Of a DNA stretch of 64,000 nucleotides, positions 6,236-53,813 are shown one piece after another. The position numbers were made by a program, and so were the translations under genes. Under the pieces are notes generated by a model. It was not told where the DNA came from. It made no database searches and worked only from the letters and a program-made list of their open reading frames with translations. Origin of the DNA: Clostridia bacterium (GTDB lineage: Bacteria > Bacillota > Clostridia > Christensenellales > UBA1242); NCBI GenBank assembly GCA_017466725.1, contig JAFTTP010000001.1, positions 28,678-92,677 of the forward strand. The letters run 5' to 3'. Each line of letters starts with the position of its first letter. The stretch's first letter is position 1.

Positions 6236-9200
6236 TTACATTTTTGTCATGTAAACATTTACTGTTTGTCCGTTGAAAGTAAGAGATGTGTTAAACTCCC
6301 CTTGACTTCCTTTGCCAAACTTATCAGCAAGAAGTGTCTTTGTAAATTCATTTTGTCTTGCAACCAACGTTTCAACCGCTGCCGCGTCACCATCAATTTC
6401 AAGTGCAATATGATTTACAACTTCAAGTCCGCTGTCTTTTCTAAGGTTTTGCACCTTGCTTACAAATTCGTTTACAAGGCCTTTTTCAAGAAGTTGTTCA
6501 GTAAGCGTTGTATCAAGCACAACTGTGAGATTGCCGTTTGTTTCTGAAGAATATCCCTCTTTATTTTTAAGCGCAATCAACAGGTCTTCTTCGCCAATTT
6601 CAACTTGTACTCCATTTGCATCAAATGCAAGCTTTTCGCCTTTTCTTACCTTGTTTACCGCTTCAACTGGGTTTACTTTTGCAAGGTATTCCCTTATTGC
6701 GCCAAGTTGTTTGCCATATTTTGGCCCAAGTGTTTTAAGTTGAGGTTTTAATTCGTACGATACATATTCGTCAGCATCCTTTAAAATTTCAACATTTTCA
6801 ACATTGAGTTCGTCCTTAATAAGCCCTTGTAGTTCAGCGTCAAGTTTAAGCTGGGTTGCACACGCAATCATAACCTTTGAAAGTGGTTGGCGATTTTTTA
6901 CATTGCTTCCGCTTCTGCAAGAACGGCCAAGGTTGACAATTTCAAGCACTTCATTCATACCTTCGTTAAGGGCGCTGTTAATCATGCTTTCATCCGCCTC
7001 TGGATATGACGCAAAGTGCACGCTTTCTGGTGCGTTTTTGTCAAGGTTTCTCACCAAGTTTTGATAAATTTCTTCCGAAATAAATGGAAGGAATGGCGCA
7101 AGAAGTCTTGACATGCTTGTCAGCACTTCGTAAAGTGTTTTGTATGCTGCAATCTTGTCGTCGCTTTCTTCGCTGCCCCAGAATCTTTCACGAGAGCGGC
7201 GAACATACCAGTTTGAAAGTTTATCTACAAATTCAGTCATTGCCCTAGACGCAGAAAGCATATCAAGTTTATCAAGGCAGTTTGTAACAAATTTTACAAG
7301 TGCATTGTATTCTGAAAGTAACCATCTGTCAAGGAATGAAAGTTTGCAATCTTTAAGGTTATATTTTGTTGGATCAATCTTATCAATTTCAGCGTAAAGC
7401 ACATAGAAAGCATAAACATTCCAAAGTGTACCCATAAACTTACGTTGAAGTTCAACCAAGTTGTCTTCGTTGAAAGCAATGCCCTGTCCAGCAACGCAGT
7501 TGTTATAGAAGTACCATCTAAGGCCGTCTGCACCTTCTTTATCAAGCACTGACCATGGATCAATTCCGTTGCCAAGTGATTTTGACATTTTTAAGCCGTT
7601 TCTATCAAGCACTAGTCCCAAAAGGTTGCAAGATTTATATGGGCTTTTGCCAAAAAGCGCTGTATTTACTGCTTGAAGTGTATAGAACCAACCTCTTGTT
7701 TGGTCAATTGCCTCACTGATGTAATCTGCTGGGAAAGATTTTTCAAATTTTTCCTTATTTTCAAATGGGTAGTGATATTGAGCAAATGGCATTGCACCAC
7801 TATCAAACCAGCAGTCCATAACCTCTGGTGTTCTTCTCATAGTATTCCCACATTTTGGACATGGGAAAGTAAGTGGATCAAGGTGAGGTTTATGAAGGTC
7901 TTTTGGTCTGACACCTGTCAATTTTTCAATTTCATCCCAGCTGCCCATAACATGAATATGGCCACATTCGCAAGTCCAGAATGGAAGTGGTGTACCCCAA
8001 TATCTGTTTCTTGAAATTCCCCAATCTATATTATTTGCAAGGAAATTACCCATTCTGCCCGCTTTGATATGGTCTGGGCACCAGTAAACACCATTATTGT
8101 TTTCAACCATTTGGTCTTTGATTGCTGTTGTTTTGATAAACCACGCTTCTTTTGCATAGTAAAGAAGTGGGCTCTTACAACGCCAGCAATGTGGATATGA
8201 GTGCTCGAATGGAAGAACTTTAAACATTTTGCCTTCACGCTCAAGTTTTTCAATCACATATTTGTCAGCTTTCTTTACAAACATACCACCAAAGTCAGTT
8301 TTATCGCTCATATTACCAGCTTCGTCAACAAGTTGAACAAAGTCAATGTCATATTTTTTGCAAACTTTATTGTCGTCTTCACCAAAAGCTGGTGCAATGT
8401 GTACGATACCAGTTCCGTCTTCTGTTGTAACATAATCATCTACTACAACGAAATATCCCTTTTTAACCTCATCTTTAGCATAGTCAAAAAGTGGCTGATA
8501 TTTATGATATTCATATTCTTTTCCACATTTTCTTGAGAGAATTGTATAACTTCCCTCTTCAAACAGCGTTGGAACAAGTTTTTCAAGCATAATGTAGTTT
8601 ACTCCATTTGAAACAAGTTTAACATATGTTTCATTTGGGTTCATACAAAGCGCAACATTTGATGGAAGTGTCCAAGGTGTTGTTGTCCACACAATAAAAT
8701 ATGTGTTTTCTTCTTCCATGCTTTTAAACTTAACAAAAACAGAGTTTTCCTTCAAAATTTTGTAGTTATCGCCATTTTCAACTTCCATTTTTGACAAAGT
8801 AGTTCCACATCTTGGGCAATATGGGCTGATTTTGTGGCCTTTATAAATCAAACCTTTTTTGTCCATTTCTTTAAGAGACCAGAAAATTGACTCAATATAA
8901 TTGTTGTCATAGGTAATGTATGGATTGTCCATATCAACCCAGTATCCAATACGTTTAGTAAACTTTTCCCACATGCCCTTATATTCCCACACAGAGTTGC
9001 GGCAAAGTTCAATAAACTTATCTACCCCATATTTTTCAATGTCTTGTTTCCCATTGAGGCCAAGTTTCTTTTCAATTTCAACTTCTACTGGAAGTCCATG
9101 TGTGTCCCAGCCAGCCTTACGATAGATATAATACCCCTTCATTGACTTATATCTTGGAATTATATCTTTCATAACACGGGTTAAAAGGTGCCCAATGTGT

Positions 9201-39764: not shown

Positions 39765-40112
39765 TTAAGGTTTAAGGTTTTCTTCACATTTTTCGCAAAT
39801 TGTTCTTTCTTCTGGAATTTCAACACCACAATTTGAACATTTGTGCATATTTACAGTACCTTTGCCAAGATTTCCTTCTGCAATACTTCCTTGTGTTGCC
39901 TGAACTGCACTTGACGTCCATGTAAATATCACCCCTACAACAACACCGGCAACAGCAGCAACAAGCAGCACAATTCCGCCAATGATAAGCCCCGCACTTC
40001 CTTTCGCAAGCGCAAGCATTAAAATTCCGCCAACAAGTGCAAGGGCAGAAATTACTAAAAGTATAATTCCAAGGTTTTTAAGTTGGCTTTTTCTTTTTTC
40101 AATTAAATTCAT
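39765..40112 (-). CDS. Small 2-TM protein with C-terminal zinc ribbon
   Basis: Two hydrophobic helices; CSNC...CEKC. Confidence 0.8.
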   Translation of the reverse strand: MNLIEKRKSQLKNLGIILLVISALALVGGILMLALAKGSAGLIIGGIVLLVAAVAGVVVGVIFTWTSSAVQATQGSIAEGNLGKGTVNMHKCSNCGVEIPEERTICEKCEENLKP

Positions 40113-40125
40113 TTTATATCTCCTT

Positions 40126-41187
40126 TTATATTAATAAAGTAAGTAGTATTATTGAAAGTACAAACAATATCGGCAAAATTACAACAAGTGCAATCTTCCC
40201 TCCCGATTTTGGCACTTTACCACCAACGGCACCCGATTGACCGTTGATTACATTTGAATATTGCTTTCCCTTATATGTAAAATTCACTCTATACATAGGT
40301 AAAACACAATAAGAATAGTTTTTGCTCAAATAAGTTGTATCCATATTAAACTTGCTTATTCCGTCGTATCTATAACCACTAAGAATTTTATATTTTATAT
40401 CGTTTTCTATAATTGTCTTAGCAGTCGCAAACGTGTCTTTTATGCTGCTTGAATAACATTCAAGGGCATAGCCTGAAATAAATTCATTAGTAAAACACTT
40501 TGCCTGCGTAAAATCGTATGGTCGCACCCAAGATAGTTCACGCTGCTCAAGTTTTGTGCTGGCCTCAATTTCAATATTTGCGTGCTGAGTGCTTTTGGTT
40601 CCGCTTATATTAAAATACCTATACTTTGTGTGATAGCGTCCTTCTTTATCTCGCACAGTATAAGTTTCATACAGAACACCATCATATGATGTCAAACAGT
40701 TTGCATCATATACAAAAGCAGGGAAATAGTACGCACGTATTGCATCGGCTTTTAAATTTTGTTTTAACTGTTTAGGCACAAACCAGTTTTTTTGAATTTT
40801 TGCCCTAAACGTTTCTTCTGCAAGTTTCTTGCCAATTCTAAACGGAACAACAGCATCTGGTTTAACTCCTTCGCCGCCAGTTTCGGCCGACACAAGCGAC
40901 GTGTCACAATATGGACAATTTGCTGAAACTTGATAGCCTTGCAAAACTACAGATGCGCCACAATTTTTGCATTTCATAATTTTTTCATCTTGAGCCCACT
41001 TTTCATTTGCATCCATAGAAGGATTTTCTAGGTCAAAATCATGTTTTGCGTATTGCGTTTTGCTGTGTATTATTTCAATGTTTTGGCAGGATGGGCAGCT
41101 AAGACATTGTCCATCCGGATTAAACACCATATCATCACCGCAACTTGGACATTTAGTAAAAGTTGCGGATATTTTTTTCTTATTCAT
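40126..41187 (-). CDS. Zinc-ribbon membrane-anchored protein (YdjG-like)
   Basis: CPSC, CPSC, CKNCGA, CPYC, PDAVVPF, INGQSG, C-terminal TM; coupled to the SPFH gene. Confidence 0.8.
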   Translation of the reverse strand: MNKKKISATFTKCPSCGDDMVFNPDGQCLSCPSCQNIEIIHSKTQYAKHDFDLENPSMDANEKWAQDEKIMKCKNCGASVVLQGYQVSANCPYCDTSLVSAETGGEGVKPDAVVPFRIGKKLAEETFRAKIQKNWFVPKQLKQNLKADAIRAYYFPAFVYDANCLTSYDGVLYETYTVRDKEGRYHTKYRYFNISGTKSTQHANIEIEASTKLEQRELSWVRPYDFTQAKCFTNEFISGYALECYSSSIKDTFATAKTIIENDIKYKILSGYRYDGISKFNMDTTYLSKNYSYCVLPMYRVNFTYKGKQYSNVINGQSGAVGGKVPKSGGKIALVVILPILFVLSIILLTLLI

Positions 41188-42245
41188 TACTCACCAAGTC
41201 TCTTGCCACATTCACTACAGAATTTTGCTGTCTTCTTTACTTCTGCGCCGCATTCTGGGCAAAATGACTTTTGTACTGCCACTTTCTTACCACATTCACT
41301 GCAGAATTTTGCGGATGCAGAAAGTTTAGCACCGCAATACACACATTCTTTTGATGCTTTTGCAGGTTTTTCTTTTGGCATATTTGCCTGCCTAATATTT
41401 TCTGCAAATACTTGGCCTAATGCGCCGCCAGCGCCAAGTCCAACGCCTATTCCGGCAAATCCACCATTACCCTCGTTTTTAGCAGCATCCACCATTGCAT
41501 CAGCAGCTTTAAGTCTTGTATAAGTGTCAATATGATCTTCCATCATTCCAAGTCTTGTCTTTTCGTCAAGAACTTTTTCAACTTCTTCTGGAAGTGAAAT
41601 GTTTTCAATGACAACTTTCATAAGTTTCATACCAAGATTTAAAAATTCTGGATTTGTTTGAGTTTTAATTTTATCTGCAAACTCTTTATAATTTGCTGCA
41701 AGGTCAAGCACTGAAATTTTGCCCTCGCCAAGAGCGTCCGCCATACCTTGAATAATTAATGGACGATTATGGTCTTCGATGTCTGCAACTTTATAAAGTT
41801 CGTTTGTGCCAAAAACTTCTTCCATAAACTTACGTACATCAACAACCTTGAATGCATATGTACCAAAACCACGAAGTCTTACATTGCCAAAATCTGCATC
41901 TCTCATCATAATTGGATTTTGTGTGCCCCACTTTAAGCCGGTAAACTGCTTTGTGTTGATAAAGTATACTTCAGCCTTAATTGTAGAATTAAAACCTGTT
42001 GGCAGTGCAAGCATCTTTGTAAGGAAAGGTATGTTTTCTGTTGCTAATTTGTAAGTACCTGGTGCAAAAATATCAGCAATTTGTCCTTTGTGAACAAATA
42101 CTGCAGTTTGAGATGGACGAACAACAAGTGTTGAGCTGTTCATAATTTCCTCTCTCTTTGTCATTGGAAAACGATAAACAATTGTATCTTTGCTGTCGTC
42201 TTGCCATTCAATTACCTCAAGTAATTGTTTCTTAAAAAATCCCAT
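41187..42245 (-). CDS. SPFH/band-7 protein with double zinc ribbon (YdjI-like)
   Basis: LEVIEW, PGTYKL, KWGTQNP, ENISLP, KFCSECG repeats. Confidence 0.87.
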   Translation of the reverse strand: MGFFKKQLLEVIEWQDDSKDTIVYRFPMTKREEIMNSSTLVVRPSQTAVFVHKGQIADIFAPGTYKLATENIPFLTKMLALPTGFNSTIKAEVYFINTKQFTGLKWGTQNPIMMRDADFGNVRLRGFGTYAFKVVDVRKFMEEVFGTNELYKVADIEDHNRPLIIQGMADALGEGKISVLDLAANYKEFADKIKTQTNPEFLNLGMKLMKVVIENISLPEEVEKVLDEKTRLGMMEDHIDTYTRLKAADAMVDAAKNEGNGGFAGIGVGLGAGGALGQVFAENIRQANMPKEKPAKASKECVYCGAKLSASAKFCSECGKKVAVQKSFCPECGAEVKKTAKFCSECGKRLGE

Positions 42246-43661: not shown

Positions 43662-45038
43662 ATGGCAGAAATTAAAGAGTTGGATTTTCAATTAAGCGAT
43701 GAAGGCTGGAACTTGTCTGGCGGAAAAAGTTTTAACATTTGGGGGCTTGTTGATTTTCCTAAAGAATTGCTTAAATACATATTAGATTACAAAAAGAAAA
43801 CATTTATTTCTTTCGACCCAACAACTGGAAAAAGAATTAAAACTTCTGGCAAACGTGCACCCGTTTGGACTGCGTTTGACAAATATTTATATCACGATTA
43901 TGATGTTAAGTCTGGCGAAAAATTGCCCAAAATTTCTGCAACATTTAAATTTAGTTTTGACCATAAATATAGTGCAATTGTTGAGAACATGGGCATGCAA
44001 ATTGCCCTTGCACTTGACATGCCAACAGCATACAACTACATAGTTGCATTTACCCCTGAAAAGCACCCCGAAATTGCAGCCCATTTAAGAACAAAACGCG
44101 ACAGAGATAATGTGCAGCCTTTACGCGACAGAGATAATGTGCAGCCTTTAGGTATTGTTTCGGTTGACTTTTTGCAGGCAAGACAGGCCTCACCAAAATC
44201 AACAGGCAAAAAGATTTATTCTCATGATGATGTTGAAGAAGAAATTGACTCTTTCTCGCACATAGATGGTGACGAGCTTATTCCTTTTGAAGACCTACTT
44301 GACCAATATCATATTGCCTATGACAAATTTGCCGGAGAAGACCACTGCTTAGACAAATGGATTGCAGCAATTGACCAAATTGCCTATATGAAATACAGTC
44401 ACATGCCAAGAGAACAATTAAACAAAACTCTTCACGACATCCACAGCCGAATTGCGCGCTCGTTCTTATTAAAAGACTGCCTACTTGGCGACTGCGACTT
44501 TACCTCATACAACGCAGGGATAGTTACAAACGCACATAAAATAAGATATGCAGCAAATCATGATTATGGCGACACATGCGCTCACCTTATCAAACAAAAA
44601 CTTATTGCAAAGCCAAATCACGGCATAAGTCAGGAAGATTTTGACAAACTTCTAAAAAATGTTCAAGAATACCTCACCTCATTGCAGGCATCTTATCAGC
44701 AACAATCAGTTGAAGAACTTGCTTCGCAATGGGCAAGCAATACAAGCAAATACAATTTTTACTACGTTCTAAAAAACTTTCCTCAAGCTTGCAGTGAATT
44801 CTTTAAAAACTTAGACAACTTAGCCCGCCGCAATCAAATTGCCAAAATTGTTGACCAATATACAAAAATGACACTCAACGGCCAACCTTTACTTACAAAA
44901 GAAGAGGCAACCATGTTTAAAAAATATCTTACTGCACGCCTAACCCATTATTGCGACCTTTATGTTGAATACTTAAATGCAAACCACTCAGAAGTTCCAC
45001 AAGAAATCGAAACTGATGATTATTCAATTGAAATTTAA
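43662..45038 (+). CDS. HipA/PI3K-like kinase-fold protein, orphan
   Basis: LSGG Gly loop, E..GMQIA..L.MPTA, GIVSVDFL, DCLLGDCDFTSYNAG catalytic-loop-like, NHDYG. Confidence 0.6.
   Translation: MAEIKELDFQLSDEGWNLSGGKSFNIWGLVDFPKELLKYILDYKKKTFISFDPTTGKRIKTSGKRAPVWTAFDKYLYHDYDVKSGEKLPKISATFKFSFDHKYSAIVENMGMQIALALDMPTAYNYIVAFTPEKHPEIAAHLRTKRDRDNVQPLRDRDNVQPLGIVSVDFLQARQASPKSTGKKIYSHDDVEEEIDSFSHIDGDELIPFEDLLDQYHIAYDKFAGEDHCLDKWIAAIDQIAYMKYSHMPREQLNKTLHDIHSRIARSFLLKDCLLGDCDFTSYNAGIVTNAHKIRYAANHDYGDTCAHLIKQKLIAKPNHGISQEDFDKLLKNVQEYLTSLQASYQQQSVEELASQWASNTSKYNFYYVLKNFPQACSEFFKNLDNLARRNQIAKIVDQYTKMTLNGQPLLTKEEATMFKKYLTARLTHYCDLYVEYLNANHSEVPQEIETDDYSIEI
44096..44150 (+). repeat. Exact 27-bp tandem duplication, in frame (RDRDNVQPL x2)
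   Basis: ACGCGACAGAGATAATGTGCAGCCTTT repeated twice. Confidence 0.97.
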
Positions 45039-45702: not shown

Positions 45703-45915
45703 TTTTATTACTCCTTAAGTTTGAGGATAACACATTTCTCTTTTTTTGCAAACTAAAAAAACACTCTTTTCGAGTGTTTTTTATTATAAAATATCAATTT
45801 TCTTTAAAATCTCGTTGGACAATACTAATGAAATATTAAGGAAAATATAAAATTATTGTAAGATGCATTTTTCAACAAAAAAAAGCCATCGAACTTAATC
45901 AATGACTTCTCTTTT

Positions 45916-45961
45916 TGGAGCTGTTGACGAGACTTGAACCCGTGACCTCTGCCTTGCCAAG
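45916..45961 (-). pseudogene. 3'-half tRNA-Thr remnant (att-like site)
   Basis: 37/46 identical to the 3' half of tRNA-Thr at 53738-53783; retains T-arm and CCA. Confidence 0.85.
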
Positions 45962-46067
45962 ATAAAACTCTCACGAGCAAAACTCGTGCCCTATGTTCAA
46001 AACTGCTTTATAAATACTAGCAAAATCGCTAGTATTTTTTCATTAGATACATTCCTACTCCAAAACT

Positions 46068-46087
46068 TTGCACCTATTGACACCTAC
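46068..46087 (+). repeat. Left arm-type direct repeat
   Basis: TTG-CACCTATTGACACCTAC; 17-bp CACCTATTGACACCTAC recurs near 53070. Confidence 0.75.
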
Positions 46088-46327
46088 AAGCATATTTTTT
46101 GATGTTTTTAGTGTTCTAAAACTGCCTAAAACTGCTTTGCTCTAAAAGTAACAAATATAAAAATAGTTGTCACATAGGTATTGACTTTTGAGATTAATAT
46201 GATAAAATATAATTGTTGCAAAATTTTTGTGTTTTTAGTTGTATTTTTTTATATAAAAGGTTATAATATTAATACAAGTTGCAAAAAAAATGCAACAAGC
46301 ATATTTTATATAAAGGAGAGATTTAAT

Positions 46328-47665
46328 ATGCTATATTTTAATATTCAAAATTTTAGAGTTTTTAATGATGAAACATTTCTAGATTTAAGAGCAAATAAAA
46401 GAAAAACTAAATTTAGTGAAAATTTAATGATACAAGAATATAAACGAAAAAAGAAGTCAATATCAGAAAAGATACTTCCTTATTCTGTTATTTATGGTGG
46501 TAATGCGTCTGGTAAGACATCAATAATAAAAGCAATGGCTTTATTAAAAAATATTGTTTTAGACGGCAGGATATTTTCAGATAATCCACAAGAAATATTA
46601 CATTCGTTAGAATTGTTTCCTTTTTTGCATGAATATAATAAATATATTGAGCCGATGAAATTATCAATTGGATTTATTACAAATAACAAAAAGTATGAGT
46701 TTTCATTAAAAATAAAATGTTCATTAAGAAACGACTATTTTTATGCTGATAGAGAAATTGTGGAAGAACAATTATTTATTAATGATGAAGAAATATATTA
46801 CAGAGACGAAAATAGTGTTCTTTTTGACAACAAAAAATGGATTATAGGACAAGAGGAAGAAAATGAACACATAACAAAAGAAGAATTATTTTTATATTCA
46901 CAATTTAAAATAGGTAAATATAATCCTGATTTTCAAAATATACTTAATTGGTTTAGATTTAGATTTATTGTTGTTGATGATATTTCAAATTTGAGAACAA
47001 CAATAGAAGGTAATTTACCACCTTATTTAAAAAGTATTGATTTAAGAAATCAAATTATCGATATTGTAACAAACTTGTCTGATTTTGGACCTCAAGATAT
47101 TTTCTATAGGGTTAATTCAACAGAAAGTGGCAATAATGCTGAAATGAGAGCTCACTATAATATTAATGGGCACCCTAAACAAGGTTTCGATACTCCTGCA
47201 ATAAATACGGAATCTACTGGGACAATTAAATTAGTCAATTTAGCAATGTTTTTAGTTGACAGTTTATTAAGTGGAAATACTGTAGTAATTGATGAGTTCG
47301 ATTCATCATTGCATTTTGCACTAATTAAAGAAATATTAAATTTATATGTAAATAATGAAATTAATACAGGAAAAGGTCAAATTGTTTTTACTTCTCATAA
47401 TCCAATATTTATACCGCTAGTAAAAATCAGAAGAGACCAAATTTATTTCATAGAAAAAAATCAAGATAATTATTCTAGTTCTTTATATTCTTTATCTGAT
47501 TTTCCTGCTGAAGATGTTAGAACAAGTGAAGCTTTTATTAAAAATTATTTGGATGGTAAGTATGGTGCATTGCCATCATTTGATTTTGAAACAGAGATTA
47601 AAAAAGCATTAAATCTACTAAAAAGGGTTAATGTAAATGTCCAAAAGATTGCCAATAAGACCTAA
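46328..47665 (+). CDS. AAA_21-type ATPase (RloA/AbiLi-like)
   Basis: NFRVF, YGGNASGKT, ESTGT, VIDEFDSSLH, QIVFTSH, RRDQIYF, YLDGKYGALP. Confidence 0.88.
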   Translation: MLYFNIQNFRVFNDETFLDLRANKRKTKFSENLMIQEYKRKKKSISEKILPYSVIYGGNASGKTSIIKAMALLKNIVLDGRIFSDNPQEILHSLELFPFLHEYNKYIEPMKLSIGFITNNKKYEFSLKIKCSLRNDYFYADREIVEEQLFINDEEIYYRDENSVLFDNKKWIIGQEEENEHITKEELFLYSQFKIGKYNPDFQNILNWFRFRFIVVDDISNLRTTIEGNLPPYLKSIDLRNQIIDIVTNLSDFGPQDIFYRVNSTESGNNAEMRAHYNINGHPKQGFDTPAINTESTGTIKLVNLAMFLVDSLLSGNTVVIDEFDSSLHFALIKEILNLYVNNEINTGKGQIVFTSHNPIFIPLVKIRRDQIYFIEKNQDNYSSSLYSLSDFPAEDVRTSEAFIKNYLDGKYGALPSFDFETEIKKALNLLKRVNVNVQKIANKT

Positions 47666-48308
47666 GAGAAAATTTGAGCACCAAATATATGCTTTTTATG
47701 AAGGTGACCAAGAATATGAATATTTTAATCACTTGAAAAATTTAATTAATAATCACCCTCAAAACAAATTAAAAATTAAAATAGTCCCTAAGAACTGCTC
47801 TGGAGGAGACCCAAGAGTTCCTGTTTATAGTGCAATAAAAAATTGTAGTCTAAACAAAACCCCATTAGTAATATTTGATTATGACAATAAAAAGATTGAG
47901 TTTGAAGAAGCTATTGATTTAGCTATGAAAAATAAATTTAATGTTGGATATTCTAATATTAACTTTGATTATTGGTTAACACTTCATAAGCTTGATAAAA
48001 GTAAAATTGTGTATGGTGAAAAAAGCAATAATGATGCATATGTAAAGTTACTTAAAGACACATATAAACTTTCTCTTAGAGAAGATATAAAAAATGTGGA
48101 AACAATTAAAAAAATTATTTCTAAAATAACATTTGAGGATGTTTTACATGCTATAAATTGCTGTAAGCTAATAGAAAAAAATAACCATCAAAATTCTGAC
48201 AGAAAAATCAACACTCCAAATGGAAATAGTTATTATAAAAATCCTGATATTAAGGTATATACTATAGTGGAAGAACTAATAAGAAAATGCATTAAAAAAG
48301 AGGACTAG
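47637..48308 (+). CDS. RloB-like (AbiLii) TOPRIM-type protein
   Basis: YEG..EY.YF, FDYD, YSN..FDYWL.LH, NP; overlaps the ATPase gene. Confidence 0.82.
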   Translation: MSKRLPIRPKRKFEHQIYAFYEGDQEYEYFNHLKNLINNHPQNKLKIKIVPKNCSGGDPRVPVYSAIKNCSLNKTPLVIFDYDNKKIEFEEAIDLAMKNKFNVGYSNINFDYWLTLHKLDKSKIVYGEKSNNDAYVKLLKDTYKLSLREDIKNVETIKKIISKITFEDVLHAINCCKLIEKNNHQNSDRKINTPNGNSYYKNPDIKVYTIVEELIRKCIKKED

Positions 48309-48346: not shown

Positions 48347-48772
48347 TTACTTTTGGGCATATTTGAGAGTGCGATATGCTCCACTTTTGTAAGTTTCTTC
48401 TATGTGGCAAACAAGAATATCACAATTATCAACAATCCATTCATTTCGTTTGACTATTTTTTGTTTGTAATGCAATTCTTCTATTTCAGGAAGTAAAGAG
48501 CCATCATAGCAAGACGGTAATTCATATTTATCCTTCTCATGATGATAGTATGTTAAAATGCGAATAAGTTTTATGTGTGGATATTTGTGTTTAAGTTCTA
48601 AAACAGCACTGGCACATTTTTTATCAAAAGCACCATAATTACCATCATAGAAAATAGTATAACCTTTGTGTATTAGTTCTTTTAATACTTGTAGAAGCTT
48701 ATCTTCAATTCTTATACAATGCCATTCATAACGATGACCTGCAAAGGCAACAATTTTATCTTTACTTAACAT
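48347..48772 (-). CDS. SLOG/DUF1273-like protein, possibly truncated by a premature stop
   Basis: AFAGHR, G..GAFD, RNEWIVD.CD, SGAY.T.KYA; frame continues NKPIIYI after the TAA. Confidence 0.75.
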   Translation of the reverse strand: MLSKDKIVAFAGHRYEWHCIRIEDKLLQVLKELIHKGYTIFYDGNYGAFDKKCASAVLELKHKYPHIKLIRILTYYHHEKDKYELPSCYDGSLLPEIEELHYKQKIVKRNEWIVDNCDILVCHIEETYKSGAYRTLKYAQK

Positions 48773-49065: not shown

Positions 49066-49596
49066 GCTTTTAAAGAGTGGCATGAAAAGCAAATTATAAG
49101 ACAAAGAACAAATAAAGAAATAACTGCCGATTTAACAGCTAAAAGCTCTTATGTTTTTGCAAACGATGACGGAAGTGTTAGAACATATTCTGGTACTCGC
49201 AAGATTTTTGATAGATTTAAAAGAAGAAATAATTTACACAAATCAAATATTCACTTTCACGGTTTAAGACATACTTTCTCTAATATGCTGTTTGAAATGA
49301 ACGAAAATCCAAAAGTTATTCAACAACTGCTTGGACACAGAGATGTTAAAACAACAATCACAGTTTATAACTCTGTGGATAATGAGTATATCAGACAAAC
49401 AACAGAAAAGTTTAACGAGAAAGTTAAAGAAGACCAACTCATACTTGAACAAAAGAAACGTGATGAAATTTTAGAAGAACAAAAAGAAAAGTTTGTAAAA
49501 GATATGTCGGATGACGAATTTGATGATATGCTTCAACAACTTATGGAAGAACGAAAGGAACGAAAACGTAAAAAACAAAGTGAAATGGAAATGTAA
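49066..49596 (+). pseudogene. Tyrosine integrase, C-terminal remnant
   Basis: In-frame YVFAN...HFHGLRHTFS...IQQLLGH...TTITVY; in-frame stop at 49027, no N-terminal half. Confidence 0.9.
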
Positions 49597-49615: not shown

Positions 49616-49714
49616 TTGAATTTGTTAAAAACTATATGATATAATGCTAAAAAAGGTTGAAGAAATGTTTTGTTTCTTCAACCTTTTGCATTTTATAAGG
49701 AGGTATGATATAAT
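49616..49714 (+). promoter_or_regulatory. Two tandem sigma-A promoters separated by a 15-bp perfect hairpin
   Basis: P1 TTGAAT-18-TATAAT (49616-49645); stem 49651-49687; P2 TTGCAT-17-TATAAT (49686-49714); both with TG extension. Confidence 0.7.
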
Positions 49715-49716
49715 AT

Positions 49717-50049
49717 TTGGAGAAAGGTCCTAGTACTTATGCTGAATACTGGACAAGTCCTTATGCTGAAGTGGAACATTATATAAGACATGGTAAGCAA
49801 ATGGGCTTTGAAAATAATATACAAGGTTATTCTAAAGCAGCAAGAACATTTGCATTGAAGGATGGAGAAAGCATAATATCTTTTACTGCAAATGAAAACA
49901 AACTTTATTCTACTTATAAGTACGATAAAGAAACAAATGAATTTATGATTATTTCTAGGAGTGGTAAAATAGTAACATATTTCCCACCAAGAAATGGTAT
50001 AGAGTATTTTTACGAACAATGTGAAAAATGGGGAGACCATTGGAATTAA
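49717..50049 (+). CDS. Orphan polymorphic-toxin-like domain (colicin D/BECR RNase-like)
   Basis: HYIRHG..MG...Y...A..F ... YD..TNEF.I....GKI.TYFPP..G..Y pattern; TTG start. Confidence 0.55.
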   Translation: MEKGPSTYAEYWTSPYAEVEHYIRHGKQMGFENNIQGYSKAARTFALKDGESIISFTANENKLYSTYKYDKETNEFMIISRSGKIVTYFPPRNGIEYFYEQCEKWGDHWN

Positions 50050-50060
50050 AAGGAGAAATT

Positions 50061-50363
50061 ATGAGTAATAGTATTAAAAATAAAAATGGAAAAATTATCG
50101 AAGTTCCACCATACAAATGTAAAGTATGTGGTATGGGGAATATTGAACAACCTTATGATATTTGTCATTTTTGTGGCTGGGAAGATGATGACATACAAAA
50201 TGAAAAACCAGACTATATGGGCGGCGCTAACGAAATGAGTTTAAATCAGTATAAGAAATTCTGGGAAGAAAATAAAGACGAAATTTTGGCAAATCTAAAA
50301 AATAATAGATTTTATGCAATAGAAAAATCACAAGAATATTACAATAAACTTTTAAAACAATAA
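50061..50363 (+). CDS. CPCC-family Cys-rich protein (putative immunity) 1
   Basis: CKVCG...YDICHFCGWEDD..Q...PDY.GGAN.MSLN. Confidence 0.85.
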   Translation: MSNSIKNKNGKIIEVPPYKCKVCGMGNIEQPYDICHFCGWEDDDIQNEKPDYMGGANEMSLNQYKKFWEENKDEILANLKNNRFYAIEKSQEYYNKLLKQ

Positions 50364-50374
50364 ACGAAGAGAAT

Positions 50375-50689
50375 ATGAAAAATACTAATAAAGAAATAAA
50401 TAAAAATCAAAATTTAGATACTCACCCATACAAATGCAAGGTGTGTGGCATGGGAAATATTGAACAATCCTATGACATTTGTCAATTTTGTGGTTGGGAA
50501 GATGATGATATACAAAACGAACAACCAGATTATATGGGTGGTGCTAACCACATGAGCTTAAATCAGTATAAAAAGTTTTGGAAAGAAAATAAAGAACAAA
50601 TATTAAAAGCAGATAACACTTGTTTTAAAGCAATTGATTTAGCAAAAAAATATTATGAAATAAATTATAAAAATCATAAGTTGAATTAA
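50375..50689 (+). CDS. CPCC-family Cys-rich protein (putative immunity) 2
   Basis: Core nearly identical to the previous gene; divergent tails. Confidence 0.85.
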   Translation: MKNTNKEINKNQNLDTHPYKCKVCGMGNIEQSYDICQFCGWEDDDIQNEQPDYMGGANHMSLNQYKKFWKENKEQILKADNTCFKAIDLAKKYYEINYKNHKLN

Positions 50690-50724
50690 TTTTAACCTAT
50701 GATTTTTTTATACAAGGAGATTAT

Positions 50725-51456
50725 ATGAAAGAAAAATATGAAGTAGATAACAACTTAATACAAGAAAAAACTGAATATGATAAAGAAAAGTTAGCAAAGA
50801 AACTTAAAATTGTAAGAAATAAATTTACAACAGTTGGAAAATATAATATGCCTCTAATAAAGAAACAAGAAATAGATTTGGATGAAATTGATTTATGGAA
50901 TTATACAAAATCAAAGTTGCAAGATAAAGATAACAAACATAAAACAATTCATTTTTTCACTTATGATTGGTTGTTTGAAAATGTATATGAAAAACCAGAA
51001 TTAACAATGGAAAAATTATCACAATATTATGCAATTTTATCCCCTGAATTTAGTTTGTATTGGGATATGCCAAAAGCACTTCAAATATATAGCACATTTA
51101 AAAATAGATGGTGTGGCGCGTTTTTTCAAAAACATGGAATGAAGGTTATTCCTACAGTTTGTTGTGCTGGTGAAGACAGCTATGATTTTTGTTTTGATGG
51201 AATAGAACAAGGTTCCGTTGTAGCTGTTTCCACCTATTGCAGAGAGGAATATAAACGAGAATTTATGAAAAGCTATAATAAAATGATGGAAGTTATTAAA
51301 CCTGCAGGAATTATTTGTTATGGAACACCATTTGAAGAAATGACTGGCAATATTAAGGTTATTAGTCCATTTGACCAAGAGGAATTAATTGCCAAAATGG
51401 GCTTTGATAATTATATGAAGAAATATTTGTCAGGCGAATTATATCCAACAAGGTAG
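50725..51456 (+). CDS. DUF4417-like protein
   Basis: IHFF.YD..FE, SPEFSLY.DMP, NRW.GA..Q..G..VIPTV, FCFDG...GS.VAVST. Confidence 0.8.
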   Translation: MKEKYEVDNNLIQEKTEYDKEKLAKKLKIVRNKFTTVGKYNMPLIKKQEIDLDEIDLWNYTKSKLQDKDNKHKTIHFFTYDWLFENVYEKPELTMEKLSQYYAILSPEFSLYWDMPKALQIYSTFKNRWCGAFFQKHGMKVIPTVCCAGEDSYDFCFDGIEQGSVVAVSTYCREEYKREFMKSYNKMMEVIKPAGIICYGTPFEEMTGNIKVISPFDQEELIAKMGFDNYMKKYLSGELYPTR

Positions 51457-51463
51457 GCACAGT

Positions 51464-52291
51464 ATGAAAGATTTGAAATTAAAAATTGAATTACTGCCTA
51501 AAGGTGCTTGGGGAAATGATTTTAGTAGAACTCTTTGTAAAAAAGACTGGGATATCCTAAGAAATGCATGTTATGAAAGAGCAAATCATAAATGTGCGAT
51601 TTGTGGATATGAAACAGATGATTTAGACGCTCACGAGGTATGGGATTTTAATATAGAAACAAAAACTCAAACTTTAATTGATATTATCGCCTTGTGTGGT
51701 AGATGTCATGGGGTTAAACATATTAGAAACTCTCAAAGATTAGGTTATGGAGAAGAAGCCAAAAGACATTTTATGAATGTAAATAAGTGTAGCGAATTAG
51801 ATTATGCTTCTCATTTAACACAAGCACAAATGGACTTTGAAGAAAGAAATAAGATTTATAGATGGAAAATTGTAGCCGACTTATCTAAATTTGGGCTTGA
51901 AAATGCAACAATAAAAGAAAAAAATATTCCGTTTGTTAGAAGCGTATATGAATATGTTGATTGGGCAACGATGTCGTTTGAAGATAAGAAAAAACTTTTT
52001 CAACTTTATCAATCTTCACCGCCAAAATATTGGATTAATCCACCTAAAGTAATATCAATTGAAATCGATAATTATCAAGGGACAATAGAAGTCTTATCTA
52101 ATGATACAAATAAAATTGAATGGTATTTAGATAAACAAAAAATAAAAACAAAATATAATGTTGTTGGTAAATTTAAAACAATATTAAAAGTAGAAAACTT
52201 AAATGGAAAAGAACTAACTTTTGCTTTATTTGGGGATGGTGGCAAAACTTTTTCAAAAATATTTGAACTTTTACCACAGGAGGTGCTATAA
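51464..52291 (+). CDS. HNH endonuclease with C-terminal beta-rich domain
   Basis: WDILR...Y......CAICG...LDAHEVW...LCGRCH.VKH. Confidence 0.82.
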   Translation: MKDLKLKIELLPKGAWGNDFSRTLCKKDWDILRNACYERANHKCAICGYETDDLDAHEVWDFNIETKTQTLIDIIALCGRCHGVKHIRNSQRLGYGEEAKRHFMNVNKCSELDYASHLTQAQMDFEERNKIYRWKIVADLSKFGLENATIKEKNIPFVRSVYEYVDWATMSFEDKKKLFQLYQSSPPKYWINPPKVISIEIDNYQGTIEVLSNDTNKIEWYLDKQKIKTKYNVVGKFKTILKVENLNGKELTFALFGDGGKTFSKIFELLPQEVL

Positions 52292-52587
52292 TGGGAATGT
52301 GTAAGCCAAGTGGCGGAATAGAAGCAAAAATCGGAAGAATTGGATGTTTAAAAGCAATATCAGTCCCAAACACAAGAATAGATTTATTTGATGAAAATGG
52401 TAACCTTATACAACAAAGATGGTATGGACCAGATGGACGAGCTATTTGGAATAGAGATTGGAAGCATAAAAATAACAATCCTAAAAAGCCACACAAATTT
52501 CCACATGACCATCCTTGGGACTGGAATCAAAAAGTTCCAAGATTAAAATATGATGAAGATAGAGATATAAATACAGATTATTGTTAA
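52291..52587 (+). CDS. Orphan polymorphic-toxin-like domain (Ntox24-like)
   Basis: PNTRID...Q.RWYG.DG.A..NRDW.H......H.FPHDH.WDW; TAATG coupling to HNH. Confidence 0.65.
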   Translation: MGMCKPSGGIEAKIGRIGCLKAISVPNTRIDLFDENGNLIQQRWYGPDGRAIWNRDWKHKNNNPKKPHKFPHDHPWDWNQKVPRLKYDEDRDINTDYC

Positions 52588-52607
52588 AATTAAAGGAGAA
52601 TAAAATT

Positions 52608-53060
52608 ATGTATAAAAAACATGAATATAATATAAAATCCTTATGTCCTGTTTGTGGTCATTCTGTAATGATTGATGAAATTGGTAATGGCGATAATTGT
52701 CCACATTGTGGCTGGGTACAAAATATAGGAAACCTTGAATACCCTGACAGGTTAGAATGCCCTAACTTAATATCATTAAATAAAGCAAAAAAATTATATC
52801 AAGAAGGTAAACCTTTTACACCAGATTTTGAAGATTTTATTAGCGGATACAACTTTTATGGAGAAATGGAATTCACATATAAAGGCATAACATATGGTTT
52901 GATGGGTATAGAAAATGAAGGTGTAGAATTTTGGGGAATAAATACAGATATATATCAAATGTTTAAGAATATAGAAGAGTTCGCAGAAAAAGCAAAAGTT
53001 GATGGAAAACCAATAAAAGATATTTGGAATGAAGTTGAAAATGCTAATTGGTTGCAGTAA
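52608..53060 (+). CDS. CPCC-like zinc finger fused to an immunity-like domain
   Basis: CPVCG...CPHCGW...PN.ISLN.AK, then EMEFTYKG..Y...KPIKDIW. Confidence 0.75.
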   Translation: MYKKHEYNIKSLCPVCGHSVMIDEIGNGDNCPHCGWVQNIGNLEYPDRLECPNLISLNKAKKLYQEGKPFTPDFEDFISGYNFYGEMEFTYKGITYGLMGIENEGVEFWGINTDIYQMFKNIEEFAEKAKVDGKPIKDIWNEVENANWLQ

Positions 53061-53065
53061 TAAAT

Positions 53066-53086
53066 TTGACACCTATTGACACCTAC
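53066..53086 (+). repeat. Right arm-type direct repeat
   Basis: TTGACACCTA TTGACACCTA C. Confidence 0.78.
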
Positions 53087-53326
53087 GGGAGCAGTTTTTG
53101 ATGGGTTTAGATGAATAATTTTTTGAGTTGAAATTTTGAGTTTGATTTGAGAGTGAATTTAAATGAAAACTGTTGTTAATTGTTGTCAAAATTAAAAATA
53201 GTTCGAATCTATCCCAGGAATTGAACAATGAAAAAACCCTTTAGTTTACACAAGAAATACGAAGTATTGCTTATAAAATAAGGGTCTTGTTTGTTGTATT
53301 ATTAACAGTCTTTTAAAATAATTTTA

Positions 53327-53719: not shown

Positions 53720-53737
53720 ATGCACCTCTATTTATTT

Positions 53738-53813
53738 TGGAGCTGTTACCGGGATTCGAACCCGGGACCTCCACCTTACCAAGGTGGTGCTCTACCTACT
53801 GAGCCATAACAGC
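53738..53813 (-). tRNA. tRNA-Thr(GGT)
   Basis: 76-nt cloverleaf: GCTGTTA/TAACAGC acceptor, CCACC-TTGGTAA-GGTGG, GTTCGAATC, encoded CCA. Confidence 0.97.

Follow-up and report, generated by a model that had tools for sequence, protein, structure and literature searches.

What kind of system combines two small toxin-like proteins, three CPCC zinc-ribbon proteins, a DUF4417 protein and an HNH endonuclease in seven tightly packed genes? This cluster, called the module below, lies at positions 49717-53060 of a 64,000-nucleotide (nt) stretch, the window, from contig JAFTTP010000001.1 (positions 28,678 to 92,677, forward strand) of the Clostridia bacterium assembly GCA_017466725.1. The genome comprises 0.77 Mb in 11 contigs and is 89% complete. 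A first-pass annotation, made from the sequence alone, had proposed a candidate new system in which carrier-less toxins, CPCC proteins, DUF4417 and HNH form one operon. All seven open reading frames (ORFs) were found on the + strand, intact and co-directional, as it had described, and its family assignments for the three CPCC proteins and the DUF4417 protein were borne out by Pfam matches above the gathering score. Our analysis goes beyond that annotation in four respects. Exchangeable cassettes flank a core in the module, which spreads horizontally and appears to ride integrative mobilizable elements, and a parallel gene set is present in actinophages.

DUF4417 was found in 14 of the 36 other genomes of the genus, and 15 of 23 DUF4417 matches were taken with their flanks. 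The order DUF4417-HNH-toxB-CPCC immunity gene was seen in 11 of these 15 loci and the order toxA-CPCC-DUF4417-HNH in two. In locus L022, toxB is followed by a DUF4417::CPCC-immunity fusion (6385-7581, 398 amino acids [aa]), and in L033, DUF4417 is followed by small ORFs without a known match. L032 contains a small terminase (TerS), a ParB_N::DUF4417 fusion, a stand-alone Ntox50 protein (143 aa) and a 135-aa ORF. Ntox50 is a third toxin family directly 3' of DUF4417, and a 1538-aa RHS protein lies 2 kb from this set (G028:C7, 366-8491). A second set was obtained by scanning one genome per prokaryote species for the HNH family, and the best 80 of 141 confirmed relatives were used. DUF4417 was directly 5' of HNH in 78 of the 80 loci, toxB was directly 3' of HNH in 40, and an immunity gene was downstream in 42. 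Upstream of the core, toxA was found in 23 loci and toxB in six. Cassettes flanked the core on both sides in two loci (L037 and L069), and the layout of L037 is identical to the seven-gene layout of the window. Ten loci showed no cassette; in several of them, the locus begins at a contig end or a small ORF was missed by the simple ORF picker. When metagenomes were scanned with toxB, all 40 loci belonged to the same module family. The first-pass annotation had raised the possibility that the gene order is not conserved elsewhere. Its recurrence in 11 of 15 genus loci and in the 80 genome and 40 metagenome loci speaks otherwise: the cluster is beyond chance, and the unit is a DUF4417-HNH core plus exchangeable toxin-immunity cassettes.

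The cassettes vary in several ways. Up to five CPCC-immunity genes follow one toxB (L065, L027). CPCC::DUF4417 fusions were present in four of the 80 loci (in L024, 11221-12318, 365 aa), and a 269-aa ORF in L044 reads as a toxB::CPCC-immunity fusion, possibly through a frameshift in the assembly. In run X4, from another gut sample, a DNA contig has the same element without the toxA-CPCC-CPCC cassette; 1130 bases, from 49702 to 50833 of the window, are swapped there for 102 other letters.

Ten loci that share a chromosomal site, with an SH3-domain gene on one side and an amidase-gmk-spoIIE block on the other, were used to compare the divergence of the module with that of its surroundings. The flanking SpoIIE and amidase genes had 53% and 56% aa identity, and their proportions of synonymous differences (pS 0.77 and 0.75) were saturated. 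Identity was 91% for DUF4417 (synonymous divergence, dS, 0.92; ratio of nonsynonymous to synonymous divergence, dN/dS, ~0.07) and 79% for HNH (dS 0.85, dN/dS ~0.16). The cassette genes were more diverged, with 60% identity for toxB (dS 1.26) and 46% for the immunity gene (dS 1.76), both at a dN/dS of ~0.3. Core and flank divergence were uncorrelated (Spearman -0.18 for DUF4417 and 0.11 for HNH). Two DUF4417-negative genomes, G011 and G006, have empty sites, with the SH3 and amidase genes adjacent and separated by a 120-nt spacer. Exact insertion borders were not obtained at this site, where filled and empty sites could not be aligned. Since a conserved core lies between saturated flanks and empty sites exist, the core is younger than the species and has moved between them. 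The sequence divergence of the cassettes indicates that they come from an older, diversified pool.

The module of the window is itself a mosaic. Its CPCC2 and DUF4417 are 95% and 98% identical to those of L055, but its HNH is only 64% identical; conversely, its HNH and toxB are 90% and 94% identical to those of L036, but its DUF4417 is 63% identical. In the window and the 80 species-genome loci, 63 toxB leaders were found, 55 of them behind the HNH 3' tail. The 55 include all ten extra downstream copies of toxB, each of which stands behind an immunity gene yet retains 45 nt or more from the 3' end of HNH. These retained tails indicate that new cassettes enter at the end of HNH and shift older ones downstream, as in the orphan arrays of contact-dependent inhibition (CDI) and Rhs systems. 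The carrier elements were seen in two relatives. L070 has the order MobL relaxase, 85-aa ORF, integrase (464 aa), toxA, CPCC, DUF4417, HNH and housekeeping genes, and L084 matches it from the integrase onward. A 19-nt core of the repeat that bounds the island in the window is also found directly 3' of the module in L036 and L055. From the order in L070 and L084 and the shared repeat core, the module appears to be carried at one end of an integrative mobilizable element. It is also found by itself, between housekeeping genes, at a chromosomal hotspot. The genomes of the genus measure ~0.7-1.3 Mb, and relatives carry Spo0A, SpoIIE and SpoVA genes.

Next, the two toxins were examined. A profile of 18 toxA sequences matched PDB entry 8ey4, a 'PT-VENN domain-containing protein' that is a CdiA-CT structure, at 6.8e-8. 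The matches to colicin D chains were weak (E 0.06-0.08), and one toxA member matched Pfam Colicin_D at 0.018. H25 is invariant and H21 nearly so. A search of 1.84 billion representatives with the profile gave 2837 proteins at E<=0.001. The seven best relatives are 98-113 aa long and were matched from profile position 1. In many others, the domain forms the C-terminal end of proteins of 195-652 aa and was matched from position 12-23; RHS/YD-shell, haemagglutinin-repeat, PT-HINT, WXG100 or LXG domains were found in seven of 20 such long relatives that were scanned. A word-based search for longer relatives gave 0 of 37 candidates, which reflects its sensitivity limit since the full profile search found many. 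For toxB, 19 longer relatives were found; Pfam or the source name marks 13 of them as RHS. In one RHS protein, 1815 aa long, the toxB match covers residues 1716-1775, just behind the RHS core, and relatives of toxB match the C-terminal end of phrog_18811 'toxin'. In several RHS-borne toxB-like domains (P0005, P0002, P0013, P0016), a hydrophobic tail follows, with Tox-WTIP in P0005. toxB itself lacks this tail and, because of the tail, the toxB-like domain may be only part of the RHS toxic tip. No Pfam family matched toxB, and a sequence search of solved structures was empty. An Atlas feature match of 0.92 to a cluster with Ntox24 in 12% of its members is a weak Ntox24 lead, and the earlier description of toxB as Ntox24-like was not upheld, as none of eight toxB members matched Pfam Ntox24 (PF15529) at E<=0.05.

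Both toxins begin with a leader, MEKGPS.YAEYWTS in toxA and MGMCKPSGG in toxB, that is nearly invariant as protein and varies at synonymous sites. The leaders are absent from the RHS-, CdiA- and LXG-borne versions, whose matches begin at residue 19-20 of toxB and at profile position 12-23 of toxA. Each gene (toxA 110 aa, toxB 98 aa) has its own ribosome-binding site (RBS) and start. The toxB ATG overlaps the HNH stop codon (TAATG), its ribosome site lies within the last HNH codons, and ~45 nt are conserved at this junction. A -1 frameshift that fuses HNH to toxB was considered and rejected; separate translation is simpler, since the junction has a GGAGGTG ribosome site and an ATG. Reading MGMCKPS as an N-myristoylation-like signal was also dropped, due to a mismatch with the consensus. 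In the 0.77-Mb genome, at its 89% completeness, no RHS, LXG or MuF family was found and no further copy of toxA or toxB. A signal peptide, secretion system, capsid or MuF gene was found neither near the module nor in the genome. The view that the toxins are polymorphic-toxin tips therefore held, through 8ey4 for toxA and the RHS proteins for toxB. So did the view that they lack a carrier, as they are separate small ORFs with their own starts in a genome where no RHS, LXG or MuF gene was found. Nor are they fragments of longer genes, given their own RBS, start and conserved leader, and the dN/dS of toxB. RNA-library contigs that match some of the module come from two studies (chicken and bovine gut). 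One of these contigs, 888 nt long, runs from HNH through toxB into the beginning of the immunity gene at ~95% identity. These contigs are compatible with transcription of a relative; DNA carry-over is possible.

The three CPCC proteins scored 48.9, 51.8 and 37.3 bits against Pfam Cys_rich_CPCC (PF14206; cut-off 24.5). The cysteines of the ribbon, C22, C25, C40 and C43, are invariant in 16 sequences. CPCC1 and CPCC2 are tandem duplicates (83% nt identity), and the likelier start of CPCC1 is the ATG at 50061, behind AAGGAG at 50050-50055. Each toxin gene is followed by a CPCC gene, as had been noted before, and this adjacency is repeated in the genome and metagenome loci. A complex between toxB and the CPCC fusion protein behind it was predicted with an ipSAE of 0.75 (runs 0.69, 0.75 and 0.85), and none of three controls scored above 0.01. 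Of 80 solved complexes, 58 attain this mark of 0.75, as against 2 of 110 mismatched pairs. The runs had at least 71% of contacts in common, with a partner pLDDT (predicted local distance difference test) of at least 83, and the predicted interface includes toxB residues 59-66, with the invariant H59. This prediction supports the binding of toxB to the CPCC fusion. The earlier label of a CPCC-immunity fusion was borne out by Pfam for the zinc-ribbon part. The C-terminal half matched no named immunity family or any other named family. Nothing linking CPCC to immunity was found in the literature searched. An immunity role of the CPCC zinc-ribbon family is likely.

The HNH protein had no Pfam match at all, including none to an HNH family at E<=0.1. 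Its identity as an HNH endonuclease, claimed in the first-pass annotation, was instead established by phrog_5200 'HNH endonuclease' (aa 4-139), six further HNH PHROGs and an AlphaFold2 model (pLDDT 90) with an N-terminal HNH domain and a C-terminal Ig/FN3-like sandwich. C44, C47, H57, C78, C81, H82 and H86 are invariant in 14 homologues. Large enterobacterial phages encode free-standing HNH endonucleases with 42-43% identity to the N-terminal domain. The C-terminal domain gave generic Ig/FN3 matches only (Foldseek on the PDB; VIA Z<=7.6); the VIA list was filled by this Ig-like domain, so that the N-domain fold was barely probed there. Among 2.9 million viral contigs of IMG/VR, the HNH family had 162 pattern matches, none of which was confirmed.

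The DUF4417 protein matched its Pfam family (PF14386) over aa 36-212 with 175.4 bits (cut-off 28.9), and its D81, D158 and E161 are invariant. Its AlphaFold2 model (pLDDT 78.9, predicted template modelling score 0.73) was compared with 48161 PDB chains using VIA, for which the typical best chance Z is 7-8. The top four chains were tRNA-guanine transglycosylases (TGTs) or DpdA: archaeosine TGT 1iq8 (Z 9.8, root-mean-square deviation 3.1, 165 aligned), QTRT2 6fv5 (Z 9.7), the DNA preQ0 insertase DpdA 7ui4 (Z 8.9) and bacterial TGT 3unt (Z 8.2). Generic TIM barrels came next. In BFVD, three homologues ranked first, and phage queuine tRNA-ribosyltransferases were found at ranks 4, 5, 10, 17, 24 and 25 (E 0.0095-0.25). 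There was no match to Pfam TGT (PF01702), and an Atlas search that excluded its own family gave no usable match. A normal tgt gene is present in the genome. Fusions of ParB_N to DUF4417 (ParB_N::DUF4417) are frequent in phages and are reported in parts of a preprint (bioRxiv 10.1101/2025.10.10.680097). According to portions of PMC10164549, DpdA acts with the ParB-fold ATPase DpdB. Phage CRB2, as described in excerpts of PMC6392294, carries dpdB-dpdA-queCDE at the left genome end, directly before the terminase. DUF4417 occupies this niche in cluster A mycobacteriophages and Streptococcus phages, and the genomic context fits a DpdA-like reading of DUF4417. No functional study of DUF4417 was found in the portions of the literature searched.

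DUF4417 matched 496 phage records, 385 of which are Mycobacterium phages, and five annotated phage regions were examined. In all three left-end records, from the mycobacteriophages Mulciber, Equemioh13 and Gail, DUF4417 lies at the left end with a stand-alone toxin, an 'immunity protein' and an HNH gene. The toxins match Pfam Gln_amidase where scanned and are annotated as VIP2-like in two. Streptococcus phage IPP52 has a ParB::DUF4417 gene before the large terminase (TerL). In Mycobacterium phage MS810 (L119, 61678-68809), DUF4417 lies within a large cluster of tRNA genes, and an HNH gene precedes it by 1 kb; this placement is interesting given the TGT-like fold. An identifiable DUF4417 ORF was present in 69 of 80 IMG/VR loci, and the next three ORFs were scored. 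They included packaging genes in 20 loci, HNH in eight and a recognisable toxin in six; none of these was seen in 41. The link between DUF4417 and toxins recurs across phyla and is a minority pattern in phages.

None of the seven proteins matched a family of PADLOC-DB 2.0 at E<=0.01, and nothing matching the module was found in the literature searched. The PADLOC library has no model for such a module, so its blank is uninformative on defence. The gene order is conserved elsewhere, the toxins are not fragments and no described system was matched; therefore, the proposal of a candidate new system stands. The explanation that we put forward, tentatively, is a selfish maintenance or exclusion module, in which a DUF4417-HNH core acts on DNA and toxin/CPCC cassettes act inside the cell. 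Gene order, horizontal spread of the core, cassette turnover, toxin homologies and the computed binding of toxB to its immunity protein are shown by the data. The left cassette would supply toxA as a colicin-D/CdiA-CT-like tRNase domain with two CPCC immunity genes, and the right cassette toxB, a domain of the RHS-tip type, with an immunity gene that has a CPCC fusion. The cognate CPCC protein would keep each small toxin in check. DUF4417 may be a TGT/DpdA-like base-exchange or modification enzyme on DNA, and HNH could be the nuclease that enforces this modification; breaks made by HNH may drive spread as well as cassette replacement at its own 3' end. Carried next to the integrase at one end of an integrative mobilizable element that is now immobilised here, the module would act in its carrier cell through addiction and possibly abortive infection. 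We infer every enzymatic activity, the intracellular action and the modification/restriction logic. Several results weigh against this explanation. Immunity runs and conserved toxin leaders are expected of toxins that reach other cells. Phage DUF4417 mostly heads a packaging module (20/69), not toxins (6/69) or HNH (8/69). Foldseek on the PDB gave DUF4417 generic TIM barrels only (E>=0.03), a sequence search of the PDB gave it no match, and its hhalign probability against a 23-sequence TGT alignment was 4.3%. With sequence support absent, the TGT likeness rests on moderate structural scores (Z 8.2-9.8). The genome yielded no convincing queC and thus no evident 7-deazaguanine donor. Constraint at the nucleotide level could account in part for the low dS of the core, and the RNA-library contigs are weak evidence of expression.

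Given the immunity arrays and the leaders, the main rival is a weapon used between cells with an unrecognised mode of delivery, which we consider rather unlikely. The leader-tagged toxins would be exported or co-delivered, for instance alongside DNA that is packed into phage-like particles or moves with the element; DUF4417, HNH-Ig or both would be the loading platform, and the CPCC proteins would protect kin. Poly-immunity arrays and old, diversified toxin/immunity alleles on a young core are a signature of external toxins, although cassette displacement can also yield such arrays as a by-product. The leaders, conserved as protein and missing from carrier-borne versions, favour delivery as well, as do the fusions of CPCC to DUF4417 (4/80) and of DUF4417 to a CPCC-immunity domain (L022), and the Ig-like domain of HNH, which ends exactly at the toxB junction. 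Phages offer parallels in the mycobacteriophage left-end sets (3/3), in the TerS-ParB::DUF4417-Ntox50 set of L032 and in the head-packaged MuF toxins predicted by Zhang et al. 2012 in parts of PMC3482391. However, no signal peptide, secretion system, capsid or MuF gene accompanies the module or was found in the genome, the HNH family had no confirmed member among the 2.9 million viral contigs, and a recognisable toxin is near only 6/69 viral DUF4417 loci. A further reading, improbable, has DUF4417 and HNH-Ig as a two-gene modification/restriction-and-homing engine that is also a platform for carrier-less toxins. In it, DUF4417 would be a new minimal DpdA-like nucleic-acid base-exchange enzyme. 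The short N-terminal leaders would tie the toxins to the complex of DUF4417/HNH and DNA, and this DNA, in phage heads or when the element transfers, would carry them into other cells. Such an engine would explain the poly-immunity arrays, the CPCC::DUF4417 fusions and the mycobacteriophage left-end gene set.

Two further explanations deny the genes a joint or active role. The module could be a remnant of phage or satellite packaging, with DUF4417 and HNH as packaging accessories and the toxin pairs as unrelated morons without a joint function. This would account for DUF4417 directly before terminase or portal genes in 20/69 IMG/VR loci, before TerL in IPP52 and after TerS in L032, for the 496 phage records and for the 42-43% identity of the HNH N-domain to phage HNH. 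We regard it as improbable too. Neither the window nor the 15 genus loci show the module beside a terminase, portal or capsid gene, save the TerS of L032. The four-gene form stands alone between housekeeping genes at a fixed chromosomal site, and the core is under strong purifying selection (dN/dS 0.07-0.16). A toxB start joined to the HNH stop and displaced copies with an HNH tail are unexpected for unrelated insertion. Very improbable, in our view, is a silent reservoir of orphan toxin-tip/immunity cassettes that recombine into an RHS, LXG or MuF gene elsewhere, as in CDI/Rhs. toxA and toxB are homologous to the C-terminal tips of carriers, the displaced copies with an upstream tail resemble CDI/Rhs orphans, and an RHS gene of G028 lies 2 kb from the DUF4417 locus L032. 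However, no RHS, LXG or MuF gene and no second toxA or toxB was found in the 89%-complete genome, each cassette comes with an RBS, a start codon and a conserved leader of its own, the tail that is kept belongs to the HNH gene and not to a carrier toxin, and toxB is covered by RNA-library contigs.

The module forms the last part of a partly decayed mobile island, whose features are given in Table 1. The GC content of 46-53.2 kb is 25-31%, against 34-40% in the surroundings. The window has a truncated integrase and 49-nt repeats, without a relaxase. The integrase remnant is 70% and 61% identical to the full-length integrases of L070 and L084 (tblastn). The first-pass annotation had described the island as otherwise decayed, which is correct for the integrase, with only ~aa 294-449 of 464 left, and not for the AbiLi/AbiLii pair, which is intact. 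This defence pair (46181-48308), in the same island as the module, was the only PADLOC match among the neighbours. An outer repeat pair, the tRNA-Thr 3' fragment (45913-45961) and the intact tRNA-Thr gene (53738-53813), encloses the island and a cdd gene. The nesting of the 49-nt repeats inside this pair suggests two successive integrations or a cdd gene brought by an older element. Promoter-like sites showed no excess in the window (29 observed, 29.8 in shuffles). Outside the island, a 458-aa ORF at 43662-45038 contains a direct duplication of the peptide RDRDNVQPL. The products of three successive - strand genes at 39765-42245 have membrane segments and several zinc-ribbon motifs of the CxxC type; the genes are positionally unrelated to the CPCC genes.

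Table 1. Features of the island and its edges, in window coordinates.
Feature	Position	Strand	Evidence or remark
tRNA-Thr-like 3' fragment	45913..45961	-	82% identity to 53735-53783; ARAGORN predicts no gene there
Left 49-nt imperfect direct repeat, att-like, island edge	46063..46111		78% identity to right copy, spacing 6999
AbiLi-type AAA ATPase, defence gene	46181..47665	+	PADLOC AbiLi 2e-68; Pfam AAA_21
AbiLii / RloB-like partner	47637..48308	+	PADLOC AbiLii 1e-11; Pfam RloB 1e-14
YpsA/SLOG-like gene	48347..48772	-	Pfam YpsA 6e-6, slightly below cut-off
Tyrosine integrase, 5'-truncated	49078..49596	+	~aa 294-449 of 464 left; C-terminal Pfam and NCBIfam matches
Terminator-like hairpin, 3' of integrase remnant	49651..49687	+	
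Promoter-like site, TG-extended -10, just 5' of toxA	49685..49714	+	Consensus match only, weak
toxA, stand-alone colicin-D/CdiA-CT-like (BECR-type) toxin domain, leader MEKGPSTYAEYWTS	49717..50049	+	Family profile
CPCC1 zinc-ribbon protein, presumed toxA immunity	50028..50363	+	Pfam CPCC 5.8e-13
CPCC2 zinc-ribbon protein, presumed toxA immunity paralogue	50375..50689	+	Pfam CPCC 7.1e-14
DUF4417 protein, core gene, TIM-barrel-like	50725..51456	+	Pfam E 1.1e-51; nearest folds TGT/DpdA
HNH endonuclease (aa 1-140) and Ig-like beta-sandwich (aa ~190-272), core gene	51464..52291	+	phrog_5200 1e-31
toxB, stand-alone RHS-CT-type toxin domain, leader MGMCKPSGG	52291..52587	+	Longer RHS relatives
CPCC zinc ribbon with unnamed C-terminal domain, toxB immunity	52581..53060	+	Pfam CPCC 2.3e-9
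Right 49-nt direct repeat, att-like	53062..53110		Starts 2 nt past last stop codon
tRNA-Thr(GGT), intact, likely original integration target region	53738..53813	-	ARAGORN

These findings place DUF4417 in a context and give it a testable hypothesis, that of a DpdA-like DNA or RNA base-exchange enzyme. They also show that polymorphic-toxin tips can be encoded by independent genes that have their own conserved leaders and are linked to a nuclease gene, not to a carrier, which widens the ways in which such toxins are deployed and exchanged. A likely immunity role is assigned to the uncharacterised CPCC zinc-ribbon family. Since the module is kept and exchanged in gut Clostridia with genomes of ~0.8-1.3 Mb, where spare DNA is scarce, it is suggested that it pays its way or enforces its own keeping.

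Several known systems resemble the module in part. The Dpd system, as far as it is covered by parts of PMC10164549, provides DpdA (7ui4), which together with the TGTs has the fold nearest to the DUF4417 model. A ParB N-domain is often fused to DUF4417, much as DpdA pairs with DpdB in that source, and phage DUF4417 and dpdA, the latter according to excerpts of PMC6392294, both lie just before packaging genes. In contrast to DpdA, DUF4417 has no significant sequence relation to this family, is much smaller (its domain has ~190 aa) and has no apparent TGT zinc subdomain. Genes for preQ0 synthesis are absent from the surroundings of the module, and the partner is a single HNH protein, not DpdC-K. 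Genes 1-4 of the cluster A mycobacteriophages are similar in content, with DUF4417 (annotated 'nuclease'), a stand-alone toxin (Gln_amidase, VIP2-like), an 'immunity protein' and HNH, but their order is DUF4417, toxin, immunity, HNH. Their HNH protein has 98 aa, matches Pfam HNH and lacks the Ig domain, the toxins are of other families, and the immunity proteins are without CPCC. The role of these phage toxins is called unclear in portions of PMC7302621. The MuF phage toxins also place toxin tips beside genes of the phage packaging region, and relatives of toxB match phrog_18811; the module, however, has no MuF domain, and its toxin is not fused to any virion protein.

Type II toxin-antitoxin (TA) and abortive infection modules share with the module a small toxin beside a small neutralising protein, a place as integrase-adjacent cargo and an AbiL neighbour. 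According to parts of Zhang et al. (PMC3482391), TA and polymorphic systems have BECR RNases and Ntox24 in common. Unlike type II TA modules, however, the module has the toxin gene first and the antidote second, its antidote has no recognisable DNA-binding autoregulatory domain, and it shows poly-immunity arrays, cassette displacement and an obligatory link to DUF4417-HNH. The polymorphic toxins (CDI/Rhs/LXG), as described in parts of the same paper, have tip-homologous toxins with an immunity gene directly downstream, a conserved junction followed by a variable toxin, displaced copies with a tail and poly-immunity arrays, all of which are seen here. In contrast to them, the module has no carrier, and its toxins are separate proteins of 98-110 aa with leaders of their own. 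The conserved part upstream of the variable toxin is a separate HNH-Ig gene behind DUF4417, and immunity is provided by the CPCC zinc-ribbon family.

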